Virus record (IMG/VR): IMGVR_UViG_3300045988_119718
Span: 128,001 to 192,000 of that record
Reading direction: 5' to 3' (one strand)
Length of the DNA: 64,000 nt
Source: a virus
This document shows positions 6,994-57,162 of this stretch, one piece after another. The notes under the pieces are model-generated. The model was not told the origin of the DNA, did not search any database, and was given only the letters and a program-made list of their open reading frames with translations. Numbering within the stretch: the stretch's first letter is position 1; every line of letters starts with the position of its first letter. Made by a program: the position numbers and the translations under genes.

Positions 6994-8028
6994 TTAAACC
7001 TCCATATCTACATTATTAACCTTATATAACCAATTCTTATATCGCATAATTATTTTATAAAGTTCTGCTAATTCTTCATGATTAAGACTTGCTAAATATT
7101 TAGTAATAAGATTATCATAAACTTTCATAAGTTTACATGTTTCTGGTAAATAATTATCTAACCATTTATCACCAAACTTTAGCATTCTTTCATATCTACA
7201 TCCACCATCGCAAAGGTAAAAATATTTACAATTTTCTATCTGACAATCTTTACTGGTACAACGCTTCTGTATTTTATCAAAGTCTTCATATTTCTGTTCA
7301 GTAAATGCGATAGAAGTGCATGATGACATAGTTTTATCTGTAAGATAAGACTGTTCTTTACCTGCTGCGCATGACTGCATTGGTGCTCTATTAATATATG
7401 CCATTATCTTATTAAGATTTTCTGTATATGGATGCTCTAATGTACCTTCAAAAGTACAATAAAGATTCTCTTCTAAATCTTTAAACCATTGATCGTCATG
7501 GTCTTCACCTCTAGCAATACAGTATTGACCATTAATATGAAACTCTTTATCTAATCTATGGAATAACTTATTAAGTCTAGGTATATCTTTTACATTAGCA
7601 TTATTAATTACAGTCTTAATATCAAAGTGGTCTAGTCCTTCAGATATAGCATAATTAATATTATTCAATACTCTATCGGCAATACTTCTACCAGAAGTAT
7701 CTACTCTAGAATCTTTAAATCCATCCCAAGAAATTTGTAATTCTATATGCCATTTCTTTTGGAACTTAATAAACTCTTTCCAATTAGCCATACTAGAAGT
7801 TATAACTTGAAAGTTCATTTGATCGTGATACTTTTCTAAGGTGTATTCCATTAAGTCTAATCTCATTAATGGTTCTCCACCAAAGAATACCACTCTATTT
7901 GGTTTATTTTGCTCTATACACTCATCTATATCTTTTTCTGTAAGACAATCATTATTATACTTGATATAACAATAATGGCATCTATTAGGACATTGATTGG
8001 TTAAAAATAAATATATTTCTTTATACAT
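6994..8028 (-). CDS. radical SAM/SPASM enzyme (likely true start MYKEIYLF…)
   Basis: 'CPNRCHYC' near the N-terminus and a SPASM-like 'CKYFYLCDGGCRYE' near the C-terminus. Its start overlaps the stop of the upstream precursor gene as TAATG. Confidence 0.8.
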   Translation of the reverse strand: MYKEIYLFLTNQCPNRCHYCYIKYNNDCLTEKDIDECIEQNKPNRVVFFGGEPLMRLDLMEYTLEKYHDQMNFQVITSSMANWKEFIKFQKKWHIELQISWDGFKDSRVDTSGRSIADRVLNNINYAISEGLDHFDIKTVINNANVKDIPRLNKLFHRLDKEFHINGQYCIARGEDHDDQWFKDLEENLYCTFEGTLEHPYTENLNKIMAYINRAPMQSCAAGKEQSYLTDKTMSSCTSIAFTEQKYEDFDKIQKRCTSKDCQIENCKYFYLCDGGCRYERMLKFGDKWLDNYLPETCKLMKVYDNLITKYLASLNHEELAELYKIIMRYKNWLYKVNNVDMEV

Positions 8029-8501
8029 TAGAATCCACCACCACATTTCTTATCATGACATGTACCACCATGGCATGATTGGCAAGATATTTGGCAAGTA
8101 GACTGACAAGATGCTTGACATACAAGTTTGCATGGGCCTGCCCAATAATCATCAGACTTAGAATTCATTTGCTGTAGTAAAAGTTTTGCTATATTATAAA
8201 TAATACCTATATCATTAGCTGTAATTATTTTTTGTTTTTGAACTTTATTGTTGATATCTTTTAATTGATTATAGTTTGCTGAAGTAGTTCTAGAAAGCTG
8301 TGTAATAGTTTTACTATAACCATTACCACCTTTTCTACTTATTTCGTTATCAGTAACAGCATTAATAGAATCTAATTCTGTAATATTTGTAAGCAAACAA
8401 TTTATCGTATTATTAAAGAAATCATTTGTAATGAAATGATCTTTAGCAGGAGAATCTGGTAAATAATATTTTACAGATTGTCTAATTACTTCTGTAGCCA
8501 T
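8028..8501 (-). CDS. Cys-rich precursor-like peptide B: ~127-aa leader plus 30-aa core LVCQASCQSTCQISCQSCHGGTCHDKKCGGGF
   Basis: Start MATEVIRQ… overlaps the stop of precursor A (TAATG). The C-terminal 30 aa are identical to precursor A and contain 8 Cys at 3-4 residue spacing. Confidence 0.6.
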   Translation of the reverse strand: MATEVIRQSVKYYLPDSPAKDHFITNDFFNNTINCLLTNITELDSINAVTDNEISRKGGNGYSKTITQLSRTTSANYNQLKDINNKVQKQKIITANDIGIIYNIAKLLLQQMNSKSDDYWAGPCKLVCQASCQSTCQISCQSCHGGTCHDKKCGGGF

Positions 8502-8911
8502 TAGAAACCACCCCCACATTTCTTATCATGACATGTACCACCATGGCATGATTGGCAAGATATTTGGCAAGTAGACTGACAAGATGCTTGACAGACTAAT
8601 CCACATGTACCATTGTTATTCCAATATTTCCAAGAATGTTCTTGCAATACATTGGAAATAGATTTACATAAATTATATATAGCTTTAGCATCATCTGCTT
8701 TAATAACATCACCTTGACTGATTAAGCTAATAATAGAATGAACAGTTTTAGGAACACCAATTCTAGAATATTCTATAATCTGTTTCTTTCTATATTCGTC
8801 TTTCTCTAATTCATCTATATTAGATAACATAGTCTCAATCATGTTATCATAAATAGTCTTACTAGAATTGACTAAATTATAGTGTATACCATTATTTACT
8901 ATCTTTTCCAT
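8501..8911 (-). CDS. Cys-rich precursor-like peptide A: ~106-aa leader plus the identical 30-aa core
   Basis: 136-aa ORF ending …NGTCGLVCQASCQSTCQISCQSCHGGTCHDKKCGGGF. Immediately downstream of an rSAM/SPASM gene, which it overlaps. Confidence 0.6.
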   Translation of the reverse strand: MEKIVNNGIHYNLVNSSKTIYDNMIETMLSNIDELEKDEYRKKQIIEYSRIGVPKTVHSIISLISQGDVIKADDAKAIYNLCKSISNVLQEHSWKYWNNNGTCGLVCQASCQSTCQISCQSCHGGTCHDKKCGGGF

Positions 8912-10265
8912 TATCTTCTACACCACCTTTATTATTCAATGAATATAAAATCATAGTCATAAGAATTTCAGATTTCTTTCTAAAGTATTCTTCAAATGTA
9001 GGGAATACATTATCAGAACCCAAATTATTAATCATTTCTTTAAGATGAATCAATCTAAGCTTTAATGCAAAAGTATTAGATAAATCCGCAGTATCCATAA
9101 TCATATCGATATACTTCTTAATCTCTAAATTAGTCTTAAGAATATTTAAGTATCTACTTCTAATATTAGTAGCATTAAGAATCTCAGCTTGCTTAATAAT
9201 AATTACATCGGTCATAATCTTATGAAGATCACAATAAGATTGTAAGACTTTATTCTCATCACCATTTTCTCTAAGGTTTTCTTCAGGGCAACCATTCTTA
9301 CAATTTCCTTTAGCTTTACAAGTTTCACATTCTTCTTTTTGATATACTGCTTGTTTTTCTTTTCTATCAGTATGGACTTTGGTTTCATCTACGTCAGTAT
9401 AGATATTACCAATCTTCTGTACTAATTTAATTTCATCCTTAGAAGTTGGTAATTGATGGCATGGATAGATATCCCCATTATAATCAATAGTACACCATTT
9501 ATTCAATCCAATAGGGCAAAGTAAATCATCAGATACTTCTGGTTCCATAACCTGTCTCATAAAGTCATCTATATTCTTAATAGCTATATTTCTCTTAGAA
9601 CCTTCTTCATTAAGTTTATCGACATACATATCCACTAATTCAATATAGTTTTCTTTATAGTCATTCAGTTGTTCTTCTGTCCACTCTACATCAGTTACTG
9701 GCATAGGACAAATAGAATCTATTCCTAAAGTATTTACTAAGTAATCTACACCATCATACATATACTTTGCATCTTCTGGTAAGATAGTCATTCTAGCTTC
9801 AATAAATACTTTCAATCCATTAGTAATAAGAATCTTTAAGTTCTTTACTACTTGATTCCATGAATTAGAACGGTTCTTATCATGAACATGTTTAATACCA
9901 TCAATAGATACTAATAAACCAATATTATTATCATCTACGTATTGAATGAAGTCTTTTGGCAAGAATGATAAGTTAGTAGTCATACCATAATCTACTAATC
10001 TATGATGCTTATTATTATCATCTATAACTGCTTTAATACATTCCCAATTCAATAATGGCTCTCCACCAAAGAAATTGACTTGGAACCTTCTATTAAAACC
10101 AGATAAATCATTATATGCCAGTCTCATAGCATCTACTGCTACTTCTGGCTTCATATATTTTTTATTTTTATCTTTTTCAAAACAATAGATACATTTAAAA
10201 TTACAATCATTAGTAATATCCAATGTGATAGAATCACAATCATAGACTTCTCTAAATGGTTTCAT
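8892..10265 (-). CDS. radical SAM/SPASM enzyme (probable start at the internal ATG MKPFREV…, strong RBS GGAGGA)
   Basis: 'CNFKCIYC' and a SPASM-like 'CETCKAKGNCKNGCPEE'. The track ORF extends to 10322, but the RBS 'ggaggaataatt-ATG' supports a start near 10265. Confidence 0.8.
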   Translation of the reverse strand: MKPFREVYDCDSITLDITNDCNFKCIYCFEKDKNKKYMKPEVAVDAMRLAYNDLSGFNRRFQVNFFGGEPLLNWECIKAVIDDNNKHHRLVDYGMTTNLSFLPKDFIQYVDDNNIGLLVSIDGIKHVHDKNRSNSWNQVVKNLKILITNGLKVFIEARMTILPEDAKYMYDGVDYLVNTLGIDSICPMPVTDVEWTEEQLNDYKENYIELVDMYVDKLNEEGSKRNIAIKNIDDFMRQVMEPEVSDDLLCPIGLNKWCTIDYNGDIYPCHQLPTSKDEIKLVQKIGNIYTDVDETKVHTDRKEKQAVYQKEECETCKAKGNCKNGCPEENLRENGDENKVLQSYCDLHKIMTDVIIIKQAEILNATNIRSRYLNILKTNLEIKKYIDMIMDTADLSNTFALKLRLIHLKEMINNLGSDNVFPTFEEYFRKKSEILMTMILYSLNNKGGVEDNGKDSK

Positions 10266-10350
10266 AATTATTCCTCCTAAAAAATAAATTATTATAATGT
10301 AAAAAAGATTATTAGTAGCCATATAAACGGCTACTAATATTTTCTACTAA

Positions 10351-12464: not shown

Positions 12465-12887
12465 TTAATAATCGGTTAAAGTAGGAGTTTTATTATTTAT
12501 TTCAGGAGAATATTTTATATAAAATCTGTCTATATAAGATTCACCACCACGAACACCAACGTACACCCTAATAGAGTATCGCTTATTCGGAGTTACACCA
12601 ATATATCCTAGAAATGAAATCGTCTCGCCATAATCACCACCACGGTACCATTGTTTGTTATTACTAAATACAGTCATACAAACTGGGTAATCCTCCTCGT
12701 GAGACGAACTAGCACTTGCATATACTTCAATCACATGTATACCATTAGGAATTGTGATAGTTCTAGTAATATCATCATTATAAGTATTTTGTTCATTTAC
12801 CAAATACCCTGTTGGTATGCTTACGGTTGCTGGGCTAGCCGTGAATGTTAGCCCCCCCCCAATTATACCTTTCATTGTTGTAGCCAT
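12465..12887 (-). CDS. small tail-associated protein with an in-frame poly-G tract (9 G = GGG codons); 'ON' member of a phase-variable paralogue pair
   Basis: MATTMKGIIGGGLTF… The homopolymer lies at codons 10-12. The paralogue at 31790..32201 has 10 G and is frameshifted. Confidence 0.55.
   Translation of the reverse strand: MATTMKGIIGGGLTFTASPATVSIPTGYLVNEQNTYNDDITRTITIPNGIHVIEVYASASSSHEEDYPVCMTVFSNNKQWYRGGDYGETISFLGYIGVTPNKRYSIRVYVGVRGGESYIDRFYIKYSPEINNKTPTLTDY
12852..12860 (-). repeat. homopolymeric G9 tract (C9 on the + strand) inside the CDS
   Basis: Seen directly as 'gccccccccc'. Confidence 0.9.
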
Positions 12888-12918
12888 ATACAACTACCTT
12901 CTTTCTTTTTAATCGTAT

Positions 12919-13685: not shown

Positions 13686-14708
13686 TTACCCCCCCCCACT
13701 AACGTTCAATGCTCCTGGTTTATACCCACTATCAGCTATAACTTCAGCTTCATATGTAGTTCCCCTTGGACAAGTAAAGGTAGAAGTATGATCGGTTCCT
13801 CCATTCTTTTGAGGTGTATAAACGTGAATAGTCTGGTTAGCAGACTGAACAATAGTTACTGTAGCATTAGCTACTGTTGCAGCTTTAGCACTAATAATCA
13901 TATTGCTATTAAATGTACCACCCTTGGTATTTGGTGTACCTGCTATATAATTATTAGCAGCTATAACTTCTACTTCATAAGTAGTACCTACAGAGCAGGT
14001 GAATGATGAAGTGTGGTCAGTACCACCAGATTTTCTAGGTGTATATACATGGATAGTCTGATTATCACTTTGAACTATAGTTATTTTAGCATAGGATATA
14101 GCAGGGTTAGCATTAATAGACATATCACTATTAATTGTACCATTCTCATTAACATTTAATGACCCTGCTGTATAACCATTTTCAGCTATAACTTCAGCTT
14201 CATATGTAGTTCCCCTTGGACAAGTAAATGTAGAGGTATGATCTGTTCCACCAGACTTCTTAGGAGTATACACATGAATAGTTTGATTAGCAGATTGGGT
14301 AATAGTTACAGTAGCATTAGATTTTGTAGCAGAAGTAGCATTGATAGTTTTATTTTTAGTAAATGTACCACTTCTGCTAATATTTAGTGTTCCTGCCTTA
14401 TAACTATTTTCAGCTATAACTTCAGCTTCATAAGTAGTTCCTGCTAGACAGGTAAAGGTAGAAGTATAATCTATACCACCAATCTTTTTCGGTACATATA
14501 CATGAATAGTTTGATTATCTGACTGATTAATAGTAATTGTAATATTCTTTTTTTCATTATGAGTTTTCTTATAAAGGTCATCTATTAGATCTTGTAATTT
14601 CTTCCAAGTAGGGTCATCTTTAGAGATTCTTTTTAGAAGAATATTTTGAAGAGAAGCATCTAAATCTTCTAATCTTATTCTTCTAATTTCCTTTTTGTTA
14701 TCATTCAT
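13686..14708 (-). CDS. tail-fibre-like protein with 4 tandem Ig-like repeats; ends GGG-stop inside a G9 tract
   Basis: Four repeats of 'QSANQTIHVYTPKKSGGTDHTSTFTCPRGTTYEAEVIAENGYTAGSLN'. Confidence 0.65.
   Translation of the reverse strand: MNDNKKEIRRIRLEDLDASLQNILLKRISKDDPTWKKLQDLIDDLYKKTHNEKKNITITINQSDNQTIHVYVPKKIGGIDYTSTFTCLAGTTYEAEVIAENSYKAGTLNISRSGTFTKNKTINATSATKSNATVTITQSANQTIHVYTPKKSGGTDHTSTFTCPRGTTYEAEVIAENGYTAGSLNVNENGTINSDMSINANPAISYAKITIVQSDNQTIHVYTPRKSGGTDHTSSFTCSVGTTYEVEVIAANNYIAGTPNTKGGTFNSNMIISAKAATVANATVTIVQSANQTIHVYTPQKNGGTDHTSTFTCPRGTTYEAEVIADSGYKPGALNVSGGG
13689..13697 (-). repeat. homopolymeric G9 tract immediately before the stop codon; a +1 G would fuse the gene in frame to the downstream DUF285 gene
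   Basis: 'taccccccccact' on the + strand. Hand translation of the 10-G variant reads GGGVINSDMTITVSYAAF…, in frame with the start of 12919..13674. Confidence 0.85.
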
Positions 14709-14719: not shown

Positions 14720-15742
14720 TTATGAAACTCTATACCAAGCTGCTAATACTGCACCATATGGATTATTTGGTAATGGAGTAGATTTACAATTTGGTGATAA
14801 AGTTGAAGAGATAGTATGTCTATGAGCACCATCAGTAGATGTATTAGGTAAAACATCATCCTTGTCAGATTTTCCGCAGCCTAAATTTTTATTACTACTG
14901 TCATACACCCCCCATTTGCATCTATCAGGCCAATGCTCACCAAATACGGTTCCATGATGATGATCGCCGGTTGTATTAGTTGAACTACCGTTATGACTAT
15001 GCGGAGGCAAATTAGCCTCTGTAAACTTTAATGTGCTACTACCAGTCTTAGTAGTTATATCTGAAGTAGAATTCTTAATATTAACTTCCTCTACACTAGG
15101 ACTACCAATCTTTACATATGCATCACTAATTCTTACCCAATGTGTTCCTGGATATTCTGTACTAGGATTTACATTATAAGCATAGAATATAACTCTGCCT
15201 ACAGCTGGTACACCACTTACATCATCACTAGTCATTACTCTCTTAAATTTGGTATTATTTATATTACCATTACTAGCTCGAATGTATAATTTTCCATCTG
15301 GTTGAGAGATAAATAATTGTGTAGAATAATTTGTGTCTTTATCATAAGGCATATTTATTAATTGACCAGAACTAGCAGGTTGATTAGAAATAGTAGGTCT
15401 ATTGTAATTTGAAATATACATGCCTTGACTATTCCAATCAGCATCACTTGTTCCAGGATTATAGTTATCTTCTAATTTATGGAATGCTTCCCATACTTCA
15501 GTTTTCTTAACAAATTGATCAGTTATATTACCTAAATTATCTGCAATAAAATTTAGCTTTTTTACTAATTCATCATAACTATCTTTAGTTACTGTATTCT
15601 TAAATAGCTCTTGTAATGATGGAGCTAATTCTTCAAAGGTGATCTTATTTTCATTATCAACTTCAGCCATTAAAAAACCTCCAATCTTATTGATTCTAAT
15701 AGGTTTACGCCTATAGGTTACTAGTATGTTAATGTGCTCCAT
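14720..15742 (-). CDS. hypothetical tail-associated protein
   Basis: 340-aa ORF, first gene of the minus-strand block after the divergent intergenic region. Confidence 0.5.
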   Translation of the reverse strand: MEHINILVTYRRKPIRINKIGGFLMAEVDNENKITFEELAPSLQELFKNTVTKDSYDELVKKLNFIADNLGNITDQFVKKTEVWEAFHKLEDNYNPGTSDADWNSQGMYISNYNRPTISNQPASSGQLINMPYDKDTNYSTQLFISQPDGKLYIRASNGNINNTKFKRVMTSDDVSGVPAVGRVIFYAYNVNPSTEYPGTHWVRISDAYVKIGSPSVEEVNIKNSTSDITTKTGSSTLKFTEANLPPHSHNGSSTNTTGDHHHGTVFGEHWPDRCKWGVYDSSNKNLGCGKSDKDDVLPNTSTDGAHRHTISSTLSPNCKSTPLPNNPYGAVLAAWYRVS

Positions 15743-22715: not shown

Positions 22716-22756
22716 ATTAACTCCTCCTTTCTAAAATTAATGATATGTCCAAAAAA

Positions 22757-22788
22757 TAAAGAGATGCTGAATAATCAGCATCTCTTTA
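22757..22788 (-). terminator. hairpin 'aaagagatgctga…tcagcatctcttt' followed by a U-tract on the minus strand
   Basis: Seen directly. Downstream of beta-prime exon 2. Confidence 0.45.
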
Positions 22789-22792
22789 TAGA

Positions 22793-23032
22793 TTAATCAA
22801 TATGGTATTTTTCTTTCAACTGTTGTATCTTCTGTTTCTGCCCTATAGAATAATTATCTCTTCCAATATTGATTAAACCATTAGCATTAATAATCATATC
22901 TTTAAAAATATTCATATCATTGTTAAAGGTTCCATCATTTCTAGAAATCATCATAGAATTTCTTGGATTAAATACTTCCATAGCAGATTCCCAAAACTTT
23001 TTATTTGGCACATAGATAATATTCAAGCAATC
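22793..23032 (-). CDS. RNAP beta-prime exon 2 (begins D-CLNIIYVP…, supplying the last Asp of NADFDGD)
   Basis: 'DCLNIIYVPNKKFWESAMEVFNPRNSMMISRNDG' aligns with the E. coli beta-prime '[33 protein letters not shown]'. The track ORF's N-terminal extension (MLTHKTF…) is intron sequence. Confidence 0.6.
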   Translation of the reverse strand, partial: DCLNIIYVPNKKFWESAMEVFNPRNSMMISRNDGTFNNDMNIFKDMIINANGLINIGRDNYSIGQKQKIQQLKEKYHID

Positions 23033-23393
23033 CTTTTTCTTTACATAGGTCGTTAGTCTATGCAGTTCTCTTAAGAACGTCTTATGCGTTAGCATAAGTA
23101 GAGACTATATCTACATCTCATAGAGATGATACGCACTTCGGATACACTTGTATCCTACTCCTTACGGATAGTCGTTGAACAGAATTAGAAATTCATATTT
23201 CTAAAACTTGCTGCTGATTGTACATTGCATATACTTTTAGGATTTCTCCATGAGTAATCTTATAGATTTTTTCTGTATTTCTACTGCATTCACACTTATA
23301 CTTTCTATCGTATTATGTTGTAGCTCTATAAGCTTTAGCACTTTCCAGCAATTCACGTATTTTAAATTACACTATCGCTAGTATAATTGGCAA
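23033..23393 (-). other. group I self-splicing intron (~360 nt) in the RNAP beta-prime gene
   Basis: On the minus strand, P 'AATTGCTGGAAAG', Q 'AATCAGCAGC', R 'GTTCAACGACTAT' and S 'AGATATAGTC' occur in canonical order. The 5' exon ends in U (…GAU GGU|). The intron ends …AAAAAG| before GAT of exon 2. A candidate P1 'GCCA' pairs with 'UGGU'. Confidence 0.7.
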
Positions 23394-24773
23394 TTATTTA
23401 CCATCGAAGTCTGCTGCCATAGTTGCAAGAATCTGTAAAGGCATACCCATTGTGTAGTCATCATTAATAGCTACACATTGTACTGCCAGAATAGAACCAT
23501 AATTAATTGTAGGATTACGATTAATCAATACATTAATACCAGAAGTATCGATGATATTTTGAATAATATCTCTAATACGTTTATCCTCTTTCAGTAATCC
23601 TTGCTTATATCTCATATATGCTGTATTATATGAAATATTATAAGTTCTTACTAAAATATTAATTACAGTCTGTTGAAGTAATTCCAATAATGTAAAATAA
23701 GATAATGTAACCTGATCTACTCTAAGTTTAGGGTCGGGAACAATAACTGATCTAGATGTAAATCCACATCTACCACCAATCAGTCTTTTAATAACACCAT
23801 TCTTATCTTTGCAGATATTAATTACTTCAGTATACAGCTCCAGATATCTCTGTTGAAGATTCCACAATAGTACATTTCTATGTTTTGGAATTCTGTAAAT
23901 AGACAATGTGTCATCATTAATCTTAGCTGCTAACTTAGCCATCATATTATAGATACCATTGGTTTTTTCATATGTAAATCTACCATCTCTTCTATCAAAT
24001 GGTCTAAGAGCTGTAGAATACACTGGAATACTATGAATAAAGATTTTATCTCTATTCTCTAAGATATCTTGATAATAATCAGGTTTCTTATTTTTATTCT
24101 TCTTATGAAAATATTCTAGGATTTCATCAAATCTATGATAAAATTCAATCAATCCAATTCCTTTATACTTTTCATCTAACTTAGTCTTTCTAGTAGACCT
24201 CTTAGCTGTAGATTTAATAATTTTAGAAGAATACTTTTGTACTGGTTTACCATTTTCATCGAGATCAATAATTGGTTCTACAATAGAAGCAAACTGATCT
24301 TTACCAATATAGCTTTCCAATACATAGAATAAATTCGGATGAATAATTGGATATCCTTCTTTAAGAGTAATCCAACCAGTCATCTCAAAATCTTCACCTA
24401 CATAGATTACTCTGGAATGACAATATGGGCAGATCATTCCTTCATAATTCTTCCCTTGTGTTCTTTTGCATTTACAAGAATATCTATCTGTAAATGCATC
24501 AGGGTCTTGCATAGTTTTTGTAAACTTGGATGAGAAAATAGAATTATCGCTTTTTAATCCTACATCAATAGCTTTCTTATCATCCTCAGGTTCATCAATA
24601 ATAAACCCTTTTCCCGATATCAGGTCTTTTGCTTTCTCTTCATCTAGATTTAATCGTAACAACCTAGTTTGGAAAGTAAACTTCTTTGATACTGGATAAT
24701 TAACGGTTAAGTTTAATTCCATATTACTCTCCTTCTCTTTAAAAACAAATAAAAAAGAATGAGTCAAGCTCAT
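23394..24773 (-). CDS. rpoC: RNAP beta-prime N-terminal fragment, exon 1 (Zn finger to catalytic AADFDG)
   Basis: 'CKCKRTQGKNYEGMICPYCHSRV' (Zn ribbon), 'LRPFDRRDGRF', 'INRNPTINYGSILAVQ…AADFDG' then an in-frame stop because of the intron. Confidence 0.8.
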   Translation of the reverse strand: MSLTHSFLFVFKEKESNMELNLTVNYPVSKKFTFQTRLLRLNLDEEKAKDLISGKGFIIDEPEDDKKAIDVGLKSDNSIFSSKFTKTMQDPDAFTDRYSCKCKRTQGKNYEGMICPYCHSRVIYVGEDFEMTGWITLKEGYPIIHPNLFYVLESYIGKDQFASIVEPIIDLDENGKPVQKYSSKIIKSTAKRSTRKTKLDEKYKGIGLIEFYHRFDEILEYFHKKNKNKKPDYYQDILENRDKIFIHSIPVYSTALRPFDRRDGRFTYEKTNGIYNMMAKLAAKINDDTLSIYRIPKHRNVLLWNLQQRYLELYTEVINICKDKNGVIKRLIGGRCGFTSRSVIVPDPKLRVDQVTLSYFTLLELLQQTVINILVRTYNISYNTAYMRYKQGLLKEDKRIRDIIQNIIDTSGINVLINRNPTINYGSILAVQCVAINDDYTMGMPLQILATMAADFDGK

Positions 24774-24788
24774 TCTTTTTTATATTAT

Positions 24789-25085
24789 CTACTTGTTTTT
24801 ATCTTTGTCAATCTTAATATGAATACCGCTATCATCTTTTTTAAATTTTATTTTAAGATCAAACAGTATATTTGCAATATCACTAAGTACTCCAGCTACA
24901 CCACTACTTTCTGTTGGGCTATCATCTGGATAATAGTTTCTCTTAATTCTATGAGTATTGGATTTATCAATACGATTAACGACATGTCTCAATTCTTTCT
25001 TTTCATCTGTCATAATAAACATCCTTCCCATAAAAATAATTGTTACTGAATATGATGAGGCATGGTATTCATAGCAAAAATACAA
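24789..25085 (-). CDS. hypothetical protein
   Basis: 98-aa ORF. Confidence 0.4.
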   Translation of the reverse strand: MYFCYEYHASSYSVTIIFMGRMFIMTDEKKELRHVVNRIDKSNTHRIKRNYYPDDSPTESSGVAGVLSDIANILFDLKIKFKKDDSGIHIKIDKDKNK

Positions 25086-25351
25086 CCGTCATCATATGAG
25101 CACTCAGGTATTCCTTTAAGATTGATATCTACATGAGTTAAAGCTTCATTGAAAATATCAAATAAATGCATAATTTTACCGTCTGGATATTTGATTTTCC
25201 AATCCAGCATTCGTCTTATATCAACATTCATCTCGATATCATTATCATTATATAAGGTATATACTTCTTTACCTTTCTCATCGATAATCTTTAACTCATA
25301 ATCAGTATTGTTTTGTATCATCATTATTATCACCTTCTTTACTAACAACAA
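25043..25351 (-). CDS. hypothetical protein
   Basis: 102-aa ORF. Confidence 0.4.
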   Translation of the reverse strand: MLLVKKVIIMMIQNNTDYELKIIDEKGKEVYTLYNDNDIEMNVDIRRMLDWKIKYPDGKIMHLFDIFNEALTHVDINLKGIPECSYDDGCIFAMNTMPHHIQ

Positions 25352-25754
25352 TAGACTGATTATGCCACAACTTAATCATTCTTTTATAAAGCAAATTAAG
25401 CCTTCTTACTTTGTTATACCTTTTAGAAAAAGTATAGTACAAACTAAGAATACAAATATTAGATGGCTTAGGAATGGCAGCAAAATCACTTTCTTGTTTC
25501 GCATCACGTACCATATTCATAATAACCTCAGAATTCCAAACAAGATTTCCATGATTATCGTAAATGTCACTCATTGGATTATCAATAATTTGTTTATCGA
25601 AATCATACAACGCATTATAAACCTCAGGTTTATAATTACCATTAGCATCTTTACATACGCTAAAGAAATACCTTTCAATAGCTGTTGTAGGAATAGCGAT
25701 AACGTTTGTAGGCAAACGATCATTAGAACCTTTTTTATCAAATACTAATTTCAT
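25302..25754 (-). CDS. hypothetical protein, paralogue of 25941..26378
   Basis: Shared '(A/C)(I/V)PTT…(G/H)GN(Y/I)KP(E/S)VYN(A/M)LY…KPS(N/T)(I/L)C(I/L)…LYYT'. Confidence 0.5.
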   Translation of the reverse strand: MKLVFDKKGSNDRLPTNVIAIPTTAIERYFFSVCKDANGNYKPEVYNALYDFDKQIIDNPMSDIYDNHGNLVWNSEVIMNMVRDAKQESDFAAIPKPSNICILSLYYTFSKRYNKVRRLNLLYKRMIKLWHNQSIVVSKEGDNNDDTKQY

Positions 25755-25940
25755 TTTAATTACTCCTTTACTTCATACAAAATAAGTGCTACAAAATTCA
25801 TATACACATGATCCCCAGTAGATGAAGTTTTATATCAATAATTTTACCTTTATCCTCTGCTTGAATTTCTGTAATACGTTCATTAATTAAACTTTCTATA
25901 GAATAATCACGATCAGTTACAGTATTATATTTAACGCACG

Positions 25941-26378
25941 CTACTTGTACCATTTTTCTTCCTCCGTATCTTTGAGTAAAATATCTATACCAGCCTTAAT
26001 AATTTTATCTGTCATTTCACGATTATTATTAATAGTATAGAATAAGTCGATCAAGCACAAAGTACTAGGCTTTAGAAATGGTAATTTTTTTATAGTCCAC
26101 TTATCTTCTTCTTTATCACGCAACCTTTCTACTTCATCCTTAATAATTTGGGATGCAATATATGCATCCCTATTGTCATCACCATAACTATCATGAAAAA
26201 TATTATCAACAATACCATCTCTGTAATTGTATAACATATTATACACAGATGGTTTAATATTTCCATGCTCATCAGTGGACTTCTTAATAAATTCTTTCTC
26301 CTCTTCTGTTGTTGGAACACAACAGATTCGATTTTTTTCAAATAATAAGCATTCATCATCATCAACACGAATTATCAT
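25941..26378 (-). CDS. hypothetical protein, paralogue of 25302..25754
   Basis: As above. Confidence 0.5.
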   Translation of the reverse strand: MIIRVDDDECLLFEKNRICCVPTTEEEKEFIKKSTDEHGNIKPSVYNMLYNYRDGIVDNIFHDSYGDDNRDAYIASQIIKDEVERLRDKEEDKWTIKKLPFLKPSTLCLIDLFYTINNNREMTDKIIKAGIDILLKDTEEEKWYK

Positions 26379-26470
26379 TTAATATTACTCCTTTCTTAAA
26401 TACAATCTGAAGATTTCAGATTATTATACATTCAATAATATAATATACAATTATTTTTAATTTTTAAAAT

Positions 26471-26498
26471 ATACTGAGCCTAATATTAGGCTCAGTAT
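26471..26498 (-). terminator. hairpin 'tactgagcctaatattaggctcagta'
   Basis: Seen directly, 3' of the minus gene 26503..26751. Confidence 0.45.
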
Positions 26499-26502
26499 AG
26501 TA

Positions 26503-26751
26503 TTATCTATTTTTATATTTAACCATCAAGATATTACCAATTCTTATAGGCAATACATTAGCATATACTCTAGATTCAGCATCTATAGATATATTAAGTT
26601 TAACCCCTCTAGGGCCTATCATTTTATAGTCTGACTGTTTTACTCTAGTACCATTAATATCTATTGATATAATACGTGCATTCATTCTATACTTATAGTT
26701 ATTAGAGAAGTAAAATTCATTACCGTTCTTTCTTACTAGTTCTATTCTCAT
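26503..26751 (-). CDS. hypothetical protein
   Basis: 82-aa ORF. Confidence 0.4.
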   Translation of the reverse strand: MRIELVRKNGNEFYFSNNYKYRMNARIISIDINGTRVKQSDYKMIGPRGVKLNISIDAESRVYANVLPIRIGNILMVKYKNR

Positions 26752-26755
26752 AATA

Positions 26756-28012
26756 TCACTTCTTTAATCCGAATGCTTTCCATACATCTATTTCATGAAG
26801 TTTAACTGTAGAGTCATGGAATGCCTTTAATGCTTTAAGCTTTAATGCTGATGCTACTTGTGGCATAGCAACACCAATATCTTTAAATCCCGCTCTATAG
26901 AATAGATTTCCTGCACATACATTACAAATCTTATTAGGTTCTTTATATTCACATAAAGAAGAGAATCTCATTCTAACTGTTTTACCTAAATATTTATCTT
27001 TATTAGTAGAATTCAATTCTATAAGTTTATTTCCTTCTACTATATAAGAATACATCATAAGTTTAATATTATACTTATCTAATGTAATTTCTATAGTTCT
27101 CTTAGTACCACAATCAGTTCCTTTAGGAGCTAAAGTAAGATGCTGAAATGCTCTTAATAATAGTTTTTCATTGTACCCGCCTTCAGGGGTCTTCTTAGAT
27201 CTAGAATATGGGCCAGCTGCTAATGCTTTAGCTAATTTAGAATAATCATCTCTAGAAATACCATCAATGTAACTTGACATAGCTACGTCATAACCCTTAG
27301 TAGGGTCTGGGTCTTTAATAGCACCTTTCATTACAAAGATATTTTTAAAGTTATTAGCAAAAGAACCTTTAGCTTTGGAATCATACATATCCATAGATAT
27401 ATCATCTTTAAGTTCTTTTTTAGCATAGTCTAATAATTCTTTTTCTATCTTATCCGCAGCATACATATTTCTTTCTGGATCTGCTAATTCATCTGCATAT
27501 TTCTTTTCTAATTGTTTTTTCATTTTATCAATCTTATAAGAAATAGTAAGCATGTTTGTAGTAAATCCAGAGCATAGTATATTACAATAAGGCTGGAATT
27601 TCTGCTGTCTCATTAAATATCTTTTTAATGCAGACAATGGTAATCTATCTTCCATAATAGCATATGAAATCTGATCATTCATATCGCCTAATACATCTTT
27701 ATTTATAGGCTTATTGATATAATGGAATAAATCAAATAAGTCTTGTTCTATAAAACACTTATTGAACCACCATCTACCTAAAGTAGTAGTAAAAGTATTT
27801 TTATTCTTCTTATTACCAATACCATAAGAATTAGGTGGAATAGTAATAATATCATATGTATTATACTTTGGTGCTTTACCATTTAAAGTACCAAAAGTTT
27901 CCATAAGTTTAGAAAGAGATTCTACATCTTTTTGAGATAAATTTAAAAAATAATCTACTTCATCTTTGTTTGTAATCTTTCTAGCAACACGTTTGTTAGT
28001 AGATACTGCCAT
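26756..28012 (-). CDS. rpoC: RNAP beta-prime fragment containing the bridge helix and the start of the trigger loop
   Basis: 'KTPEGGYNEKLLLRAFQHLTLAPKGTDCGT' matches '[28 protein letters not shown]'. 'CNVCAGNLFYRAGFKDIGVAMPQVASAL' matches '[30 protein letters not shown]'. Confidence 0.75.
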   Translation of the reverse strand: MAVSTNKRVARKITNKDEVDYFLNLSQKDVESLSKLMETFGTLNGKAPKYNTYDIITIPPNSYGIGNKKNKNTFTTTLGRWWFNKCFIEQDLFDLFHYINKPINKDVLGDMNDQISYAIMEDRLPLSALKRYLMRQQKFQPYCNILCSGFTTNMLTISYKIDKMKKQLEKKYADELADPERNMYAADKIEKELLDYAKKELKDDISMDMYDSKAKGSFANNFKNIFVMKGAIKDPDPTKGYDVAMSSYIDGISRDDYSKLAKALAAGPYSRSKKTPEGGYNEKLLLRAFQHLTLAPKGTDCGTKRTIEITLDKYNIKLMMYSYIVEGNKLIELNSTNKDKYLGKTVRMRFSSLCEYKEPNKICNVCAGNLFYRAGFKDIGVAMPQVASALKLKALKAFHDSTVKLHEIDVWKAFGLKK

Positions 28013-28015: not shown

Positions 28016-29068
28016 TTAGCTCACCACCTTTTTATATATTCTACCTTTATAAACATTAGAGGCAACTATACCATTTAATCTATTTTTTATATTGCCTCTA
28101 TCTTTTTCAACATAATTATTAGCTCTAAGATATTTATTTAACCCTCTATATTTTCCTATAAATTCATTAGTGGCTTCGTCATATACTTCAAATTCAAGAT
28201 TATACCTTCTATTATTAGATTGCTCTTCTTGTGTTGCCCATGTACAATTTTCAGGAGAATAGTCTTTATTTACATCTATTCTATCCATAGTTGTATTTAT
28301 TAATCCATGTTTATCAGCAAATTCTTTAAAAGAGTTCCAATTATCTAAAAAATAATTATGGAAATCATGCCATCTATCACAAACTTTTATACCTCTCCCG
28401 CCATATAACTTGTAACGATTATTAGATGGATTATAACGTTGCATCATACCTCTCCATCTTTTATAAAAAGCTCTATATGAAGGATCAGTTCTATCCTCGA
28501 TTTCGTTGTAAATTAAATGAGAATATTCATCATGCTTAGTTCCATGCCTTTTACAAAAATTACTGTAATATATTTCTTTTGTATATCCGCAAATTTTACA
28601 TTTAGCTAAAAATCTAGGCATATTATTTTTATATCCTAAAAATTTAATTAATACCATATCTTCAATAGTTTCTCCGACTTTTTCTTTATAATAATCTTCT
28701 TCACAATTTAGCCTATTGTGAAAATAATTATATTTTATAAAATTACTTTTTAATACTTTTTTTATATGCCCACATTTAGTGCATTGAATATTGCAGTATT
28801 GCTCATTACGATCTGTATACTCATCTAAAAGCTCTTTAAACTTATAATCAGTTCTAACTACATTTTTCAAAAAATCTTCATTGCAAGTATCTAGCGAATG
28901 CTTATAATGATATAACGTAATACTCTGCTTTGTTATATGTTTAATATGACCGCATTTAGTGCATTGAATAGTATAAACAGGGGCATAATGTTTATTTCTT
29001 CCATCATACGATATAATTTGGTAATCACCGATTATTTCTCCGACTAAATCTGAATAATTAGTTTTCAT
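28016..29068 (-). CDS. free-standing HNH-family homing endonuclease-like protein (three Zn-ribbon modules plus a C-terminal 'IDVNKDYSPENCTWATQEEQSNN' block)
   Basis: Three repeats of 'CTKCGHIK…SNF'. The C-terminal block is typical of phage HNH/AP2-type homing endonucleases. Strong RBS 'aaaaggag'. Immediately adjacent to the intron-like element. Confidence 0.55.
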   Translation of the reverse strand: MKTNYSDLVGEIIGDYQIISYDGRNKHYAPVYTIQCTKCGHIKHITKQSITLYHYKHSLDTCNEDFLKNVVRTDYKFKELLDEYTDRNEQYCNIQCTKCGHIKKVLKSNFIKYNYFHNRLNCEEDYYKEKVGETIEDMVLIKFLGYKNNMPRFLAKCKICGYTKEIYYSNFCKRHGTKHDEYSHLIYNEIEDRTDPSYRAFYKRWRGMMQRYNPSNNRYKLYGGRGIKVCDRWHDFHNYFLDNWNSFKEFADKHGLINTTMDRIDVNKDYSPENCTWATQEEQSNNRRYNLEFEVYDEATNEFIGKYRGLNKYLRANNYVEKDRGNIKNRLNGIVASNVYKGRIYKKVVS

Positions 29069-29199
29069 ATGCTAATATCTCCTTTTATTTTTATATTAAT
29101 ATAAGTGCTATAAAAACTAATTATTAATTTTTGGTTTTATTGTATTTTTAGAAGTAAATACTATAGTTAATAGTTATTGACTTACGTAAATCGATCAAT

Positions 29200-29557
29200 G
29201 CATTTTTATTCGCTTAGAGTCGTTAATTCTAAACCGCTTATTTAAAGCCGCTTTATGTCTCCATAAAGAGTAGATCATATCATAATCTCTATTAAAGAGA
29301 TTTCTCCCATTTCCACCCACTTGGATGTACGTCATAAAGACTGATCGTTGAACCTTCTCTATAAAAGAGCTTGGCTGCTGATTGTGCATTGTTTATACCT
29401 TTTAGGTTTTAGCCATGAGGCATCATAAAGATTGTTTCTGTTTTTCAACAACCTATGTTTAAAATATAGGTTCTTTATGCTTTAGCAGTTTCCAGCAATT
29501 AAGGAGATTTGCAAATCTATATCGCTATAGACTGGAACCATTGAATAATAATATAGC
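29200..29557 (-). other. second copy of the group I intron (P 'AATTGCTGGAAAC', Q 'AATCAGCAGCC', R 'GGTTCAACGATCAGTC', S-like 'TGATATGATC'); 3' boundary uncertain
   Basis: About 150 nt aligns with intron 23033..23393 at roughly 75-80% identity. It begins right after the stop of 29558..30394 (exon ends in U). ORF 29195..29389 lies inside it and is probably spurious. Confidence 0.5.
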
Positions 29558-30394
29558 TTAACGCTTGTTATTATCGCTTAATTCATTTGGTATGTTTAAC
29601 CTAGTTACAGGTCTGATATTCATATATTCAGCATTATCCACTGTATCAGACAATTTACCATCTGTTTTTACATAACCAGTACAAAGAGAGATAGAGTTAA
29701 TTCTAGCATCATTCAATCCTGTACCATAAAAGAAAAAGTCTCTACAATCGTCTTTGGTAATAGACATCTGCATTGAAACTATAGATTCTACTTCCATATC
29801 AGTAGACTCTTGTGTTGTATATACATTAGCGTCTATAGGAGTACCATCTGTAAATTGCTGTGTAAATACTGGATTAGAATCAAACTTCTTAAAGTAATAT
29901 GCGATTCTATCTGATTTCTCTTTTCTACCAAAGTAAGTACCAGTCTTAGTATAGTCTCTCTGTACTGGGGTTAAATCAGTATCTGGAGTGGTGTATCTAA
30001 ATGGAACAATACCACCATAAGTATCTGTATAAGCTGGATTAATCCATGAAGCATATTTAGCTGCATATACTTGTGAATTTTCTCTACCGCAGCCATCTGT
30101 ACCTACACAGAACAAGCATACTTTTTCTAGTTTATTTTCAGTATTAGATTCTTCAGAATTAGCAAAAGTAAAATCAAGCATAGAATTATAGTTCGGTGTC
30201 TTTTCAGGTTCATCAATATCAAATAACAACCTAGCTATAAATCCACCACCAGCTAATGTCATAATATTATGAGTTGTGAATAATACTTCCCCAGTATCAG
30301 TATACCATGCTTTAATAACTGTTTTAAAATTAGTACGTTCACCAGTTATACCCATGGTATCTTTTAGAGATAAAGGTTTATTTATAATAGACAT
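29558..30394 (-). CDS. hypothetical protein (candidate intron-containing gene; function unknown)
   Basis: 278-aa ORF. Confidence 0.5.
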   Translation of the reverse strand: MSIINKPLSLKDTMGITGERTNFKTVIKAWYTDTGEVLFTTHNIMTLAGGGFIARLLFDIDEPEKTPNYNSMLDFTFANSEESNTENKLEKVCLFCVGTDGCGRENSQVYAAKYASWINPAYTDTYGGIVPFRYTTPDTDLTPVQRDYTKTGTYFGRKEKSDRIAYYFKKFDSNPVFTQQFTDGTPIDANVYTTQESTDMEVESIVSMQMSITKDDCRDFFFYGTGLNDARINSISLCTGYVKTDGKLSDTVDNAEYMNIRPVTRLNIPNELSDNNKR

Positions 30395-31789: not shown

Positions 31790-32201
31790 TTAATAATCTG
31801 TAACAGTAGGAGGTATTTTATTTATTTCAGAAGACCAAGACATAACGACACTAACACCACCAACTTCTTCACCAAAGTCGGATTCGTATGTAAGTTGTAA
31901 CTCATATGTTTTTTTAGGTGTCACACCAACATAGCTAATACTAGTAGCTGAGTCACCATAACCAGTAACAGATGCCCAGATATTACTAGAACCACCAAGC
32001 TCGCCTTTATACGCACCTGATTGAGATTCAGCATCAATATCACATTTAATAACCCTTACTGATTCTGGTGGAATAAAACTAAATGATGTTATACTATCAG
32101 TGCTTTCAAACCTACTATCACTAGTTATTTGAGCTGTTGCGGGGCTAGCACTAAATACTACTACCCCCCCCCCGTATAGTTCCTTTTAAAGTTGTTGTCA
32201 T
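31790..32201 (-). pseudogene. frameshifted ('OFF') paralogue of 12465..12887; the ATG with strong RBS reads 16 codons to a stop because the poly-G tract has 10 G, while a 9-G version encodes a ~137-aa protein ending …KIPPTVTDY
   Basis: Hand translation with 9 G gives MTTTLKGTIRGGVVVFSASPATAQI…VGVTPKKTYELQLTYE…KIPPTVTDY*, which parallels MATTMKGIIGGGLTFTASPATVSI…IGVTPNKRYSIRVYVG…KTPTLTDY*. Confidence 0.55.
32164..32173 (-). repeat. homopolymeric G10 tract (C10 on the + strand)
   Basis: 'ctaccccccccccgtat'. Confidence 0.9.
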
Positions 32202-34260: not shown

Positions 34261-34412
34261 TACTGTTTTTCATTAATCATGATTTGTCCTCCTTATAGAC
34301 AAAATGACTAGAGTTTATTTTCTCTAGTAACATAGTGAATTGGTAGATGTATTTCTACCACGACTCACTATTATAATATATAACTATATATAACTAAGTA
34401 TTTTAGGAATTA

Positions 34413-34664: not shown

Positions 34665-35489
34665 TTATTTTTTCTCTTTTTCTAAATATTCTTTTACTTT
34701 ATCATAGTAATAGTCTTTATTTAAAAATGCTTTCTTAAATTCTTCTAAAGACCCAAATAGTTCTTGTAAATCTCTTCTGTTATCATATAAGTATTTTATC
34801 AAGTTCATATGTCTATCATAAAGTTTAGGATAATGCTGTTTTATTTTTTCTAAGTTTTCAGCAGTATTATATTGAATTGGACATATTAAGCAAGATCTAG
34901 TGAATCCTAAAGTATCATAATCTTTATTAAGCTTTATATTATTTTCCTTAATATACTCATAGCAGTCTTCATCTGTCCAATTAAATATAGGAGAAATTAT
35001 TTTTTTATTTCCTTCTTTTATGGTAATTGCAGATTTAACCCAAGTCTTAGTATTGTATAAATCGTCTTTTCTAACACCAGTGAAAAATATATCATATTTT
35101 TTTAATACTTTTGTTGTTGTTTGCCGTTTATATGAGCAGCAAGATAATAAAAATTTACTATTTATAATATTATTATCTTTGTATAATTTTTTGATATAAG
35201 AAGATAAAGCAAAACATTTATTTTCTTTCATATACTTTTCAGCATCTATACCAATAATAGTTACATCAGGTCTAGATTTAAGATAATCTAATATACCATC
35301 ATCTTCAAACCCAGTAGCAATATAATATTGATAAATAAAATCTCTTACTTTTAATTCTTTTAATAAATTATCGACGATTACACTATCTTTACCACAAGAA
35401 AATAGAAAACATGCATTATCGTCTTTAGAGTAATTATCTAAAATTATTTGTTTAGATTCTTTTATTTTTTCTTCTAGTTGATTAGTCAT
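34665..35489 (-). CDS. PAPS-reductase-family (PP-loop ATP pyrophosphatase) protein
   Basis: PP-loop 'FLFSCGKDS' (SGGxDS-like). Confidence 0.55.
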   Translation of the reverse strand: MTNQLEEKIKESKQIILDNYSKDDNACFLFSCGKDSVIVDNLLKELKVRDFIYQYYIATGFEDDGILDYLKSRPDVTIIGIDAEKYMKENKCFALSSYIKKLYKDNNIINSKFLLSCCSYKRQTTTKVLKKYDIFFTGVRKDDLYNTKTWVKSAITIKEGNKKIISPIFNWTDEDCYEYIKENNIKLNKDYDTLGFTRSCLICPIQYNTAENLEKIKQHYPKLYDRHMNLIKYLYDNRRDLQELFGSLEEFKKAFLNKDYYYDKVKEYLEKEKK

Positions 35490-50653: not shown

Positions 50654-51471
50654 TTGTTATCACTATCCTTTGGTACACTAGAGATAACTCGACGATACTG
50701 TTTATTTGCTTCCATAATACCTTTATTAGTATTGCTTCTAATGCTTCTAGCATACCCATTCGCGAAATTAACAATATCTTCCATTGTAGGTGAAGGATTA
50801 TTACTATATCTAACAATATCCTCTAAAGTAATCTTATTATCAGCAATAATCTTATTCGCCATTGCTTCATTCATACGAATATTATCTGGGAAATGCATAC
50901 AGAGGTCAATAAACGAAAGATTATCATAAAGATACATACAATTCAGCATATTTGCAAATTGTACTTCATTAGGATTAGTAAAAGCACTCTGAGGATTTCT
51001 AATATCTCCAACTCTAACCCCAAATAAATTAAATAAATAATTTCCAAGTACTGGAATAAAATTAAGAGATGTAGCTTCATCTCTAGGGACAAATAATACG
51101 ATATTTCTACCTGTATAAAATAGTTTCAATAATACCGAAATAATATTTTGACAGGTGACATCATTATTCAAGAAATTACCATAAATATTTGCTCCAATAT
51201 CATATCTTCCTTCAAGATAAGCACTAATTGCTTCTGGTGGAGGAAGAAGTGAACTAAGCATTACTACGCCTTTTCTTGGCATTACTGATACTCCAAATTG
51301 ATTTCTAACTTTATATTTCTCTGGATTATCATCAATAATACCTAAACTAAAATTCTGATTATTTAAAACCATAAAATACTCATCTGCATTACTTGCAAAA
51401 TAACCTACTCCAAACATAATAAACACTTCTCCTTTCAAATATATAAATATAATAACTTTATATGGTTTCAC
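50650..51471 (-). CDS. hypothetical protein
   Basis: 273-aa ORF. Confidence 0.5.
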   Translation of the reverse strand: MKPYKVIIFIYLKGEVFIMFGVGYFASNADEYFMVLNNQNFSLGIIDDNPEKYKVRNQFGVSVMPRKGVVMLSSLLPPPEAISAYLEGRYDIGANIYGNFLNNDVTCQNIISVLLKLFYTGRNIVLFVPRDEATSLNFIPVLGNYLFNLFGVRVGDIRNPQSAFTNPNEVQFANMLNCMYLYDNLSFIDLCMHFPDNIRMNEAMANKIIADNKITLEDIVRYSNNPSPTMEDIVNFANGYARSIRSNTNKGIMEANKQYRRVISSVPKDSDNK

Positions 51472-51547
51472 TACTATAATATATATTTTATTTATACTTT
51501 ATGAAAAAATAAAAGTAGAGAATATTCTCTACTTTTATTTCTAATGA

Positions 51548-56964: not shown

Positions 56965-57162
56965 AACTTATTTTTCCTTTCTATTTAAAATTATAAGTGT
57001 AATTATCTCACAATTATAATATATTTTTTAATTAATTTTTACATTTATATCTCCTAGTTCATATGAACTAGGAGATATAAATGCTGCTTAGAAAGAGAGT
57101 TTAAGTGTACTGCAATTAGGGAAGTCATTGCATTACTTATATGTATACTCATATGTAGAAAA

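Follow-up and report, generated by a model that had tools for sequence, protein, structure and literature searches.

Pieces of two probable AR9/PBS1-type RNA polymerases and an intron-split catalytic motif in an uncultured human-gut jumbo phage

RNA Polymerase Genes in the Window

The window analysed here is a stretch of 64,000 nucleotides (nt) of viral DNA (IMG/VR virus record IMGVR_UViG_3300045988_119718, positions 128,001 to 192,000; 29.1% G+C). It contains three open reading frames (ORFs) of 418, 459 and 274 amino acids (aa), all on the minus strand, which carry hallmark motifs of the beta' (418 and 459 aa) and beta (274 aa) subunits of multisubunit RNA polymerase (RNAP), and two group I introns, one of which interrupts the gene of the 459-aa ORF (Table 1). 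The three ORFs had been singled out by their motifs in a preliminary description of this DNA, and for each of them we found homology to RNAP well beyond chance. That description had also placed the window in a giant phage, and proteins identical to those of the window indeed occur on gut-metagenome contigs of 225-268 kb, a size that fits a jumbo phage; the window is part of an uncultured human-gut jumbo phage of ~252 kb. Contig ERZ27229725:k119_143398 (252,690 bp) carries the window proteins exactly; its coordinates put the window ends across the contig ends, which points to a circularly permuted assembly. A megablast search of positions 22000-29000 against the INPHARED phages returned only a 42-nt match, inside a gene for an HNH homing endonuclease, and no near-identical phage.

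The 418-aa protein comprises the region after the cyanobacterial-type split of beta', the bridge helix, the DCGT motif and the first trigger-loop helix, and it ends in ...KAFHDS (sequence ...PEGGYNEKLLLRAFQHLTLAPKGTDCGT... and ...CNVCAGNLFYRAGFKDIGVAMPQVASALKLKALKAFHDS). Its bridge helix and DCGT, read as EGGYNEKLLLRAFQHL...DCGT, are present as they had been quoted, as is CNVCAGNLFY...VASAL, and they align to the chloroplast beta'' subunit (8QMA_B). The 459-aa ORF has a CKC-x12-CPYC Zn site, LRPFDRRDGRF, GGRCGFTSRSVIVP and NRNPT, and terminates in ...AADFDGK-stop. The 274-aa ORF contains AIMCTDEAYEDSSII, a GNKG-like block (...AIKGVV...) and ...DALLTSASVNARM..., so that the ED Mg-site motif, the GNKG-like AIKG and the NPLGVPSRMN-like blocks of beta are all represented. 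This last ORF had been taken for the beta gene; it is a beta homolog with a GNKG-like block, but only the 3' end of the gene, because the frame stays open to base 64000, the window edge, and the gene is 1448 aa long in a near-identical contig. The full virion beta gene is a single, uninterrupted ORF of 1448 aa (L015:3811-8157; contig ERZ27229725:k119_143398).

Pfam assigns the 459-aa ORF to RNA_pol_Rpb1_2 (E 4.3e-9) and the 274-aa ORF to Rpb2_6 (E 5e-6), both above the curated cut-off; the 418-aa ORF is too divergent for a Pfam assignment. All three fall in PHROG families of the jumbo-phage "RNA polymerase beta subunit": the 418-aa ORF in PHROG 2962 (E 2e-65, versus 2e-15 for PHROG 3015), the product of the 459-aa ORF, spliced as described below, in PHROG 2987 (E 9e-63) and the beta ORF in PHROG 14872 (E 6e-50). 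By tblastn, ~100-235 jumbo phages match each of the three ORFs, the top matches (27-36% identity) being Staphylococcus phages S6, PALS_2 and Madawaska, Bacillus phages AR9, PBS1 and BpSp, Listeria phage LPJP1 and Yersinia phage phiR1-37. The 418-aa ORF is covered end to end by AR9 gp264 (33% identity, residues 13-412, E 4e-51), and the beta ORF matches AR9 gp189 (E 6e-43). With phmmer against the PDB, the spliced 459-aa ORF product finds the beta' chain d of the AR9 non-virion RNAP (7S00/7S01, E 1e-42), then gp55 of the phiKZ non-virion RNAP (7OGP_A, E 1e-22), cyanobacterial gamma (1e-11) and bacterial beta' (~1e-8). Similarity to RNAP subunits, on which the earlier reading of these ORFs had been made to depend, is thus significant for all three.

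Table 1. Features of the window, in window positions (NT, nucleotides; aa, amino acids; PWM, position weight matrix).
Feature	Position	Strand	Remarks
Virion-RNAP beta' middle fragment gene	26756..28012	-	418 aa, AR9 gp264 homolog
Non-virion-RNAP beta'N ORF as called	23394..24773	-	459 aa, AR9 gp270 homolog
Virion-RNAP beta gene, 3' end	63097..64000	-	called ORF 63097..63921, 274 aa; AR9 gp189 homolog
beta'N exon 1	23400..24722	-	441 codons; Zn site, LRPFDRRDGRF, NRNPT, AADFDG
Group I intron 1	23033..23399	-	367 nt, no ORF; Rfam RF00028
beta'N exon 2	22793..23032	-	79 aa + stop, DCLNIIYVPNKKFWES...; third catalytic Asp
Terminator-like hairpin with T-run	22756..22789	-	directly after the beta'N stop codon
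Group I intron 2	29201..29580	-	380 nt; Rfam RF00028, 64 bits, E 1.9e-15
288-aa gene, no assigned function	29148..30394	-	exon 1 29581..30394, exon 2 29148..29200; hosts intron 2
Free-standing HNH homing endonuclease gene	28016..29068	-	350 aa; PHROG 374, 5e-36
AR9-type early promoter-like motifs	51467..51488, 57007..57028, 26431..26452, 34364..34385	-	PWM
One of these four motifs, AATTGTATATTAT-N6-G	26431..26452	-	PWM score 16.0
Terminator-like palindromic hairpin	26470..26499	.	separates the virion beta'/82-aa ORF pair from the promoter-like motif
Small ORFs between the RNAP genes	24789..26751	-	82, 145, 150, 102/93, 98/74 aa; no assigned function
ThyX (Pfam Thy1 on the identical L015 gene), adjacent dNMP-kinase-like gene, RNase H	58578..59939, 60432..61253, 55940..56680	-	
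Three radical-SAM-domain proteins (cluster)	4652..5812, 6994..8046, 8892..10322	-	PHROG
PAPS-reductase-like protein	34665..35489	-	PHROG

A Group I Intron within the Catalytic Motif of beta'N

The 459-aa ORF, an N-terminal beta' fragment (beta'N), ends early, at AADFDG-K-stop: its NADFDGD motif is split by a 367-nt group I intron (intron 1), inserted after the GGT (Gly) codon and before the GAT (Asp) codon of the catalytic DFDGD. The sequence after GAT GGT continues as AAATAATTGCCAATT.... The preliminary description had credited this ORF with a Zn finger, LRPFDRRDGRF and AADFDG(D): the Zn site, LRPFDRRDGRF and AADFDG are there, while the final Asp sits in exon 2. A focused Rfam scan recognised a full-length group I intron at 23081..23409 (RF00028, 50.0 bits, E 1.2e-11).

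The exon-intron junctions were set from intron-less alleles and the P1 and P10 pairings. In blastn comparisons with six intron-less contigs, a clean 367-nt insertion stands between flanks that are 96-98% identical. By exact-sequence look-up, the 459-aa protein clusters with proteins of 520 and 537 aa that read ...ATMAADFDGDCLNIIYVPNKKFWES..., and the intron-less 537-aa protein equals the predicted spliced product but for one residue near the C-terminus. The intron-less protein P0018 reads AADFDGDCLNIIYVP, and excision of the intron from the window gene restores AADFDGDCLNIIYVP exactly. The catalytic loop AADFDG|D is so re-established, and exon 2 aligns seamlessly with the sequence of the AR9 gp270 structure. 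For the two introns of the window, the predicted exon junctions are ...GACTTCGATGGT|GATTGCTTGAAT... and ...CCAAATGAAT|CATTGATCGATT.... The 3' end that Rfam suggests for intron 1, at 23081, was rejected: it would insert 16 aa into DFDGD. The likely start of beta'N is the ATG at 24722, preceded by AAGGAGAG as ribosome-binding site (RBS), which gives a protein of 520 aa and is used by the 520- and 442-aa gene calls in related contigs; an alternative ATG lies upstream, at 24773.

As read from the sequence, P1 of intron 1 pairs UGGU|AA with UUGCCA and places a U.G pair at the splice site; the 3' end of the intron is ...AAAAAG|, with a terminal G, and P10 is formed by GAUU of the 3' exon with AAUU. 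Hairpins P9.1 and P9.2 account for the 48 nt past the Rfam match. In P9, intron 1 alleles differ by compensatory changes (CTTATGC/GCATAAG versus CTCATTC/GAATGAG). Intron 1 is predicted to be self-splicing, and since it stands between the Gly and the final Asp codons, an active subunit would arise only after RNA splicing. In AR9, gp270 has an intron in exactly this place (GDYDG|DVLNIIPV), and the HNH gene gp271 lies within it; the AR9 and window introns have only core motifs in common.

Two Different Enzymes

Every window ORF was compared with a local assembly of the AR9 genome. The 418-aa ORF matches only gp264 (6e-61), the 459-aa ORF only gp270 (3e-35) and the beta ORF only gp189 (2e-48). In reverse phmmer searches, the 418-aa ORF is strongly preferred by virion gp264 (8e-63) over its non-virion paralog gp154 (0.0025), and the beta ORF reaches merely 0.016 with non-virion gp089. 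Records of Staphylococcus phages label their matches accordingly as "viral RNAP beta-prime, mid-domain", "non-viral RNAP beta-prime" and "viral RNAP beta". In AR9, the subunits of both enzymes were assigned experimentally: the virion RNAP, which is known to be packaged, consists of gp189/gp078 for beta and gp145/gp264/gp125 for beta', and the non-virion RNAP of gp105/gp089/gp270/gp154 plus gp226 (PMC5312081). Both beta' fragments of the window break at the split after the double-psi beta-barrel (DPBB) domain that is common to jumbo phages and cyanobacteria (PMC7598289).

Judged by this paralog-specific homology, the two beta' pieces are parts of different enzymes and not halves of one protein, in agreement with the earlier proposal of split subunits, possibly from a virion and a non-virion polymerase set, as in AR9- and phiKZ-like phages. 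The unusual gene order pointed out at the same time is real, but it does not amount to a permuted single gene: with the two pieces belonging to different enzymes, the position of the bridge-helix fragment ahead of the N-terminal one is accounted for. We consider it very probable (at about 0.88) that the phage carries an AR9/PBS1-type, phiKZ-related two-polymerase system, with pieces of both enzymes in the window and the beta'N gene split by an intron. Transcription independent of the host, also put forward in the preliminary description, would follow from membership of this family.

Early Promoter-like Motifs and Gene Order

The AR9 early promoter has the consensus AAATATATATTAT-N6-G (PMC5312081). 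With a position weight matrix (PWM) built from the 32 annotated AR9 early promoters and including the N6-G spacing, four sites in the window score at least 15.9 bits, versus 0.26 expected, and four were reached in none of 300 simulations. All four are intergenic and on the minus strand, have a G exactly six nt downstream, and match ATATATTAT-N6-G, the consensus in common with AR9. The exact AR9 string AWATATATTAT is not enriched in the window (two found versus 4.2 expected), and neither are sigma-70-like promoters. The four sites suggest that promoter specificity may be conserved between AR9 and this distant gut phage.

One of the motifs (26452..26431) lies on the same strand as beta'N, 1.7 kb upstream, ahead of the cluster of small ORFs that leads to it. 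Another sequence, TTTGTAAT-N3-TA(A/T)AAT, occurs three times on the minus strand (at 31061, 31750 and 34416), each time immediately after a terminator-like hairpin, and may be another promoter class.

By analogy with AR9 and phiKZ, the virion enzyme would be packaged and injected and would transcribe early genes from AAATATATATTAT-N6-G-like promoters, the operon with non-virion beta'N presumably among them. The beta'N transcript would have to self-splice, whereupon the non-virion enzyme would transcribe the late genes, including those of the virion RNAP.

Weighing the Two-Polymerase Reading

Several observations weigh against this reading. Only three of the ~10 RNAP polypeptides expected lie within the window: homologs of AR9 gp145, gp125, gp078, gp105, gp089, gp154 and gp226 were not found in the 64 kb with AR9 proteins in phmmer --max and PHROGs on 30 ORFs, the 20 largest included, and for the C-terminal-most piece of virion beta' (AR9 gp125 / SPN3US gp244), where one query was an E. 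coli beta' C-terminus, no significant match came up in the window. With AR9 gp154 as query, many gut jumbo-phage homologs were obtained, none of them assignable to the same genome by protein, contig or IMG/VR look-ups. Identity to characterised phages is only ~30-35%, and virion packaging, expression timing and splicing are all inferred. The score of intron 1 is exactly the Rfam gathering threshold (50.0 bits), and whole-window Rfam scans, at gathering as well as E-value thresholds, miss both introns; we set the latter negative aside as a filter artefact, both introns appearing only when regions of at most 2 kb are scanned. A ThyX gene in the window means that the DNA may not be uracil-DNA as in AR9, and recognition of late promoters could differ. 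Lastly, a terminator-like hairpin directly upstream of the beta'N start makes the link between the promoter-like motif at 26452 and beta'N uncertain.

The two beta' fragments could be read as halves of a single split beta' with rearranged genes, that is, as one polymerase with a permuted order, seeing that they are neighbours on the same strand and together would make up beta' almost exactly (the 520-aa piece runs on for ~80 aa past DFDGD, and close to that split point the 418-aa piece begins). We hold this to be very unlikely: each fragment has its own AR9 ortholog in a phage that holds both sets, the 418-aa ORF discriminating between gp264 and gp154 by the margin given above and beta'N matching gp270 only; the PHROG families differ in the same way; and the same two genes, from different enzymes, are neighbours in AR9 as well. 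It is also highly improbable that beta'N is a pseudogene, truncated in the catalytic motif by a nonsense mutation or insertion and with the downstream 100-aa ORF as a remnant. The ORF does end in AADFDGK-stop, lacking the third Asp, and intron 1 scores only at the Rfam threshold, but the insertion is a full-length group I intron whose P1/P10 pairings join the exons in frame, and many contigs keep the 367-nt element, with compensatory changes. Purifying selection on the exons is clear (flanks of 96-98% DNA identity, near-identical exon-1 proteins), and this codon is followed by an intron in AR9 too, which is a viable phage.

A small share of probability goes to RNAP fragments that are genuine but differ in their roles, such that the gp264-like enzyme is perhaps unpackaged or the phage depends in part on the host RNAP. 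The identity to AR9 of only ~33%, the different DNA chemistry suggested by ThyX and the lack of an AR9 homolog for most window genes would all accommodate such a departure. It is countered by the AR9 early promoter consensus, N6-G spacing included, at four intergenic sites, by sigma-70-like sites not being enriched, and by the two-RNAP strategy being reported as common to all phiKZ-related phages (PMC7598289). That the region is cellular, made of host or prophage-captured rpoB/rpoC fragments, is scarcely credible: the motifs are those of bacterial beta and beta', and a 60%-identical homolog is found on a contig binned into a "Tenericutes" metagenome-assembled genome (MAG), but jumbo-phage subunits beat bacterial beta' by tens of orders of magnitude (1e-42 versus 1e-8), tail-fibre and other phage genes are nearby, the related contigs are ~250 kb with a source contig that maps as circularly permuted, and the MAG contig is merely 4.3 kb.

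Comparison with Known Systems

The two-polymerase system proposed for this phage has its closest characterised counterpart in AR9/PBS1 (structures 7S00/7S01/7UM0), with the same three subunit families and the same beta' split point. In both phages the virion beta' middle gene and the non-virion beta'N gene are neighbours (~3.4 kb apart in AR9), and a group I intron occupies one and the same DxDG|D site of beta'N, some alleles having a related HNH_3 endonuclease as well. The two differ in that proteins are only ~30-36% identical and almost no other genes are in common over 64 kb; the two beta' genes converge in AR9 but point the same way in the window; AR9 gp189 is divided into six exons, while our virion beta gene is uninterrupted; and our phage, from the human gut, has ThyX, while AR9 has uracil-DNA.

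The annotations of the other best matches (Staphylococcus phages S6, PALS_2, Madawaska, MarsHill and vB_StaM_SA1, Listeria phage LPJP1 and Yersinia phage phiR1-37; 27-36% identity) agree with these assignments, but the two beta' genes of the Staphylococcus phages are far apart (in the Madawaska record, near 2 kb and near 160 kb), unlike here. The phiKZ non-virion RNAP (gp55 beta'N; 7OGP) has a homologous N-terminal beta' fragment and is part of a two-RNAP strategy; phiKZ belongs to a more distant, Gram-negative lineage that forms a phage nucleus, of which there is no sign here. The same split after the DPBB domain separates cyanobacterial gamma from beta' and plastid beta' from beta'' (PMC7598289); those enzymes are cellular and have alpha and omega, whereas the virion beta' described here is split further and stops inside the trigger loop.

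A Second Intron and a Free-Standing HNH Gene

The second group I intron (intron 2) was found in a 489-nt "intergenic" stretch after ORF 29558..30394. It breaks a gene for a 288-aa protein 17 codons before the stop, so that gene callers give a 278-aa protein with a false C-terminus. In the intron-less alleles L029, L032 and L033, the 288-aa protein ends in ...NESLIDLRKSITLNYSIYF, and the spliced window sequence (AATGAAT|...AAAAATG|CATTGA) yields the same C-terminus. P1 pairs GAAU|UA with UGGUUC, the 3' end is ...AAAAUG|, and P10 is a perfect 6-bp pairing of CAUUGA with UCAAUG. The 5' splice site suggested by Rfam would fall downstream of a stop codon, and the intron-less alleles and P1/P10 were preferred; the intron-less 288-aa alleles also rule out a non-coding location for intron 2 and a junction of the 278- and 418-aa ORFs across it. 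Within the window, the 12-nt core motifs of the intron family occur only at the two intron sites. The 288-aa gene has no match in PHROG, Pfam or phage databases, nor does the 278-aa ORF match in phage genomes.

Between the 288-aa gene and the virion beta' gene, immediately upstream of the latter and ~130 nt downstream of the insertion site of intron 2, stands the free-standing HNH gene. It is absent from L012 and L030, which have a 12-nt RBS-bearing segment instead, degraded into two ORFs in L013, L027 and L033, and present in the other contigs. Intron 2 and the homing endonuclease gene (HEG) occur in the combinations intron+/HEG+, intron+/HEG- and intron-/HEG+. Group I introns of phages, with HNH or GIY-YIG endonucleases, are familiar from T4 td/nrdB, SPO1 and Twort, where they insert at the most conserved catalytic codons, and "collaborative homing" refers to ORF-less introns served by free-standing endonucleases. 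The position of the HNH gene is consistent with this, and it may cooperate with the ORF-less intron 2. Relative to the T4, SPO1 and Twort introns, insertion at conserved catalytic codons is the same; the target genes here are RNAP subunits.

Intron Variation among Related Contigs

Contigs with the truncated 442-aa call have either the same 367-nt intron or a version of 1057 nt, in which the P6 loop holds a 229-aa HNH_3 endonuclease ORF; the 367-nt form is a precise deletion of this ORF. The 229-aa HNH_3 protein (L018/L025) shares its HNH core with AR9 gp271 (49% over 53 aa, E 2e-10). The related contigs thus display three states at the catalytic codon: intron-less, with an ORF-less intron, and with an HNH-containing intron. 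RNAalifold on both window introns and their variants found 12 pairs with double compensatory changes. In sister lineages from IMG/VR (L037-L044; 40-52% aa identity), beta'N is interrupted after NRN|PT, after NRNPTxxYG or near NAD|FDGD; in L038, two sub-threshold group I matches lie exactly in the beta'N gaps, and the L043 homolog has an insertion that Rfam did not recognise. Both the introns and the HNH endonucleases have the features of selfish homing elements directed at highly conserved coding sequence. Only tentatively, and with more doubt than confidence, do we suggest that the RNAP genes of this abundant uncultured clade of gut jumbo phages are a live arena of group I intron and HEG turnover.

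Other Features of the Window

Among the small ORFs between the RNAP genes, 25302..25754 and 25941..26378 (minus strand; 150 and 145 aa) are paralogs without a database family, and related contigs have two to three copies of variable length; a further gene of ~67 aa is called in this run of ORFs in related contigs. Downstream of the virion beta gene, 61254..63096 is an ORF-free stretch of 1.84 kb with three direct repeats of ~100 nt (62700-62932, ~85% identical), a C-rich tract (~62225-62270, minus strand) and the recurring TTATAAACT. It corresponds to no Rfam family. In AR9 the syntenic position is taken by a gene for a Hef-like endonuclease; tblastx against AR9 was negative for a decayed version of it here.

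The deoxynucleoside monophosphate (dNMP) kinase-like gene next to ThyX, a likeness seen by eye, has no PHROG match, and no tRNA genes were found in the window. The cluster of radical-SAM proteins and the protein resembling phosphoadenosine phosphosulfate (PAPS) reductase may form a module for the modification of nucleic acids or metabolites. Runs of nine to ten G on the coding (minus) strand occur at 32164..32173, 13689..13697 and 12852..12860. The G10 run breaks a 136-aa ORF starting at 32201, whose frame is restored when one G is removed; the other two lie at the ends of ORFs 13686..14708 and 12465..12893, beside a tail-protein-like gene (14720..15742). Either an assembly error or slipped-strand phase variation could be the cause. 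Furthermore, the 60%-identical beta'N homolog mentioned above (L046; CAMKNB010000064.1) is on a 4.3-kb contig in a MAG labelled "uncultured Tenericutes", a weak hint at the host that could reflect composition-based binning.

Discussion

We regard the locus as a new and divergent representative of a known system, the AR9/phiKZ-type dual multisubunit RNAPs, to which two group I introns and mobile HNH endonucleases are added here; current understanding is not overturned. It extends the AR9/PBS1-type two-RNAP strategy, so far characterised in cultured phages of Bacillus, Staphylococcus, Yersinia and Pseudomonas, to a widespread uncultured human-gut phage of ~250 kb. At ~30-35% identity to the solved AR9 enzyme, its sequences are useful to define the conserved core of multisubunit RNAPs that lack alpha and sigma. 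The intron at the catalytic Asp codon is also a practical warning for annotation, beta'N being annotated as two hypothetical proteins because gene callers and whole-contig Rfam scans miss the intron.

The presence/absence series at this codon (no intron, ORF-less intron, intron with endonuclease) constitutes a natural dataset for homing dynamics in essential phage genes. If turnover is ongoing, intron 2 and its neighbouring free-standing endonuclease could add a case of collaborative homing, and the clade would be a natural setting in which to test a published hypothesis, namely that the RNAP genes of jumbo phages became fragmented through intron mobility.

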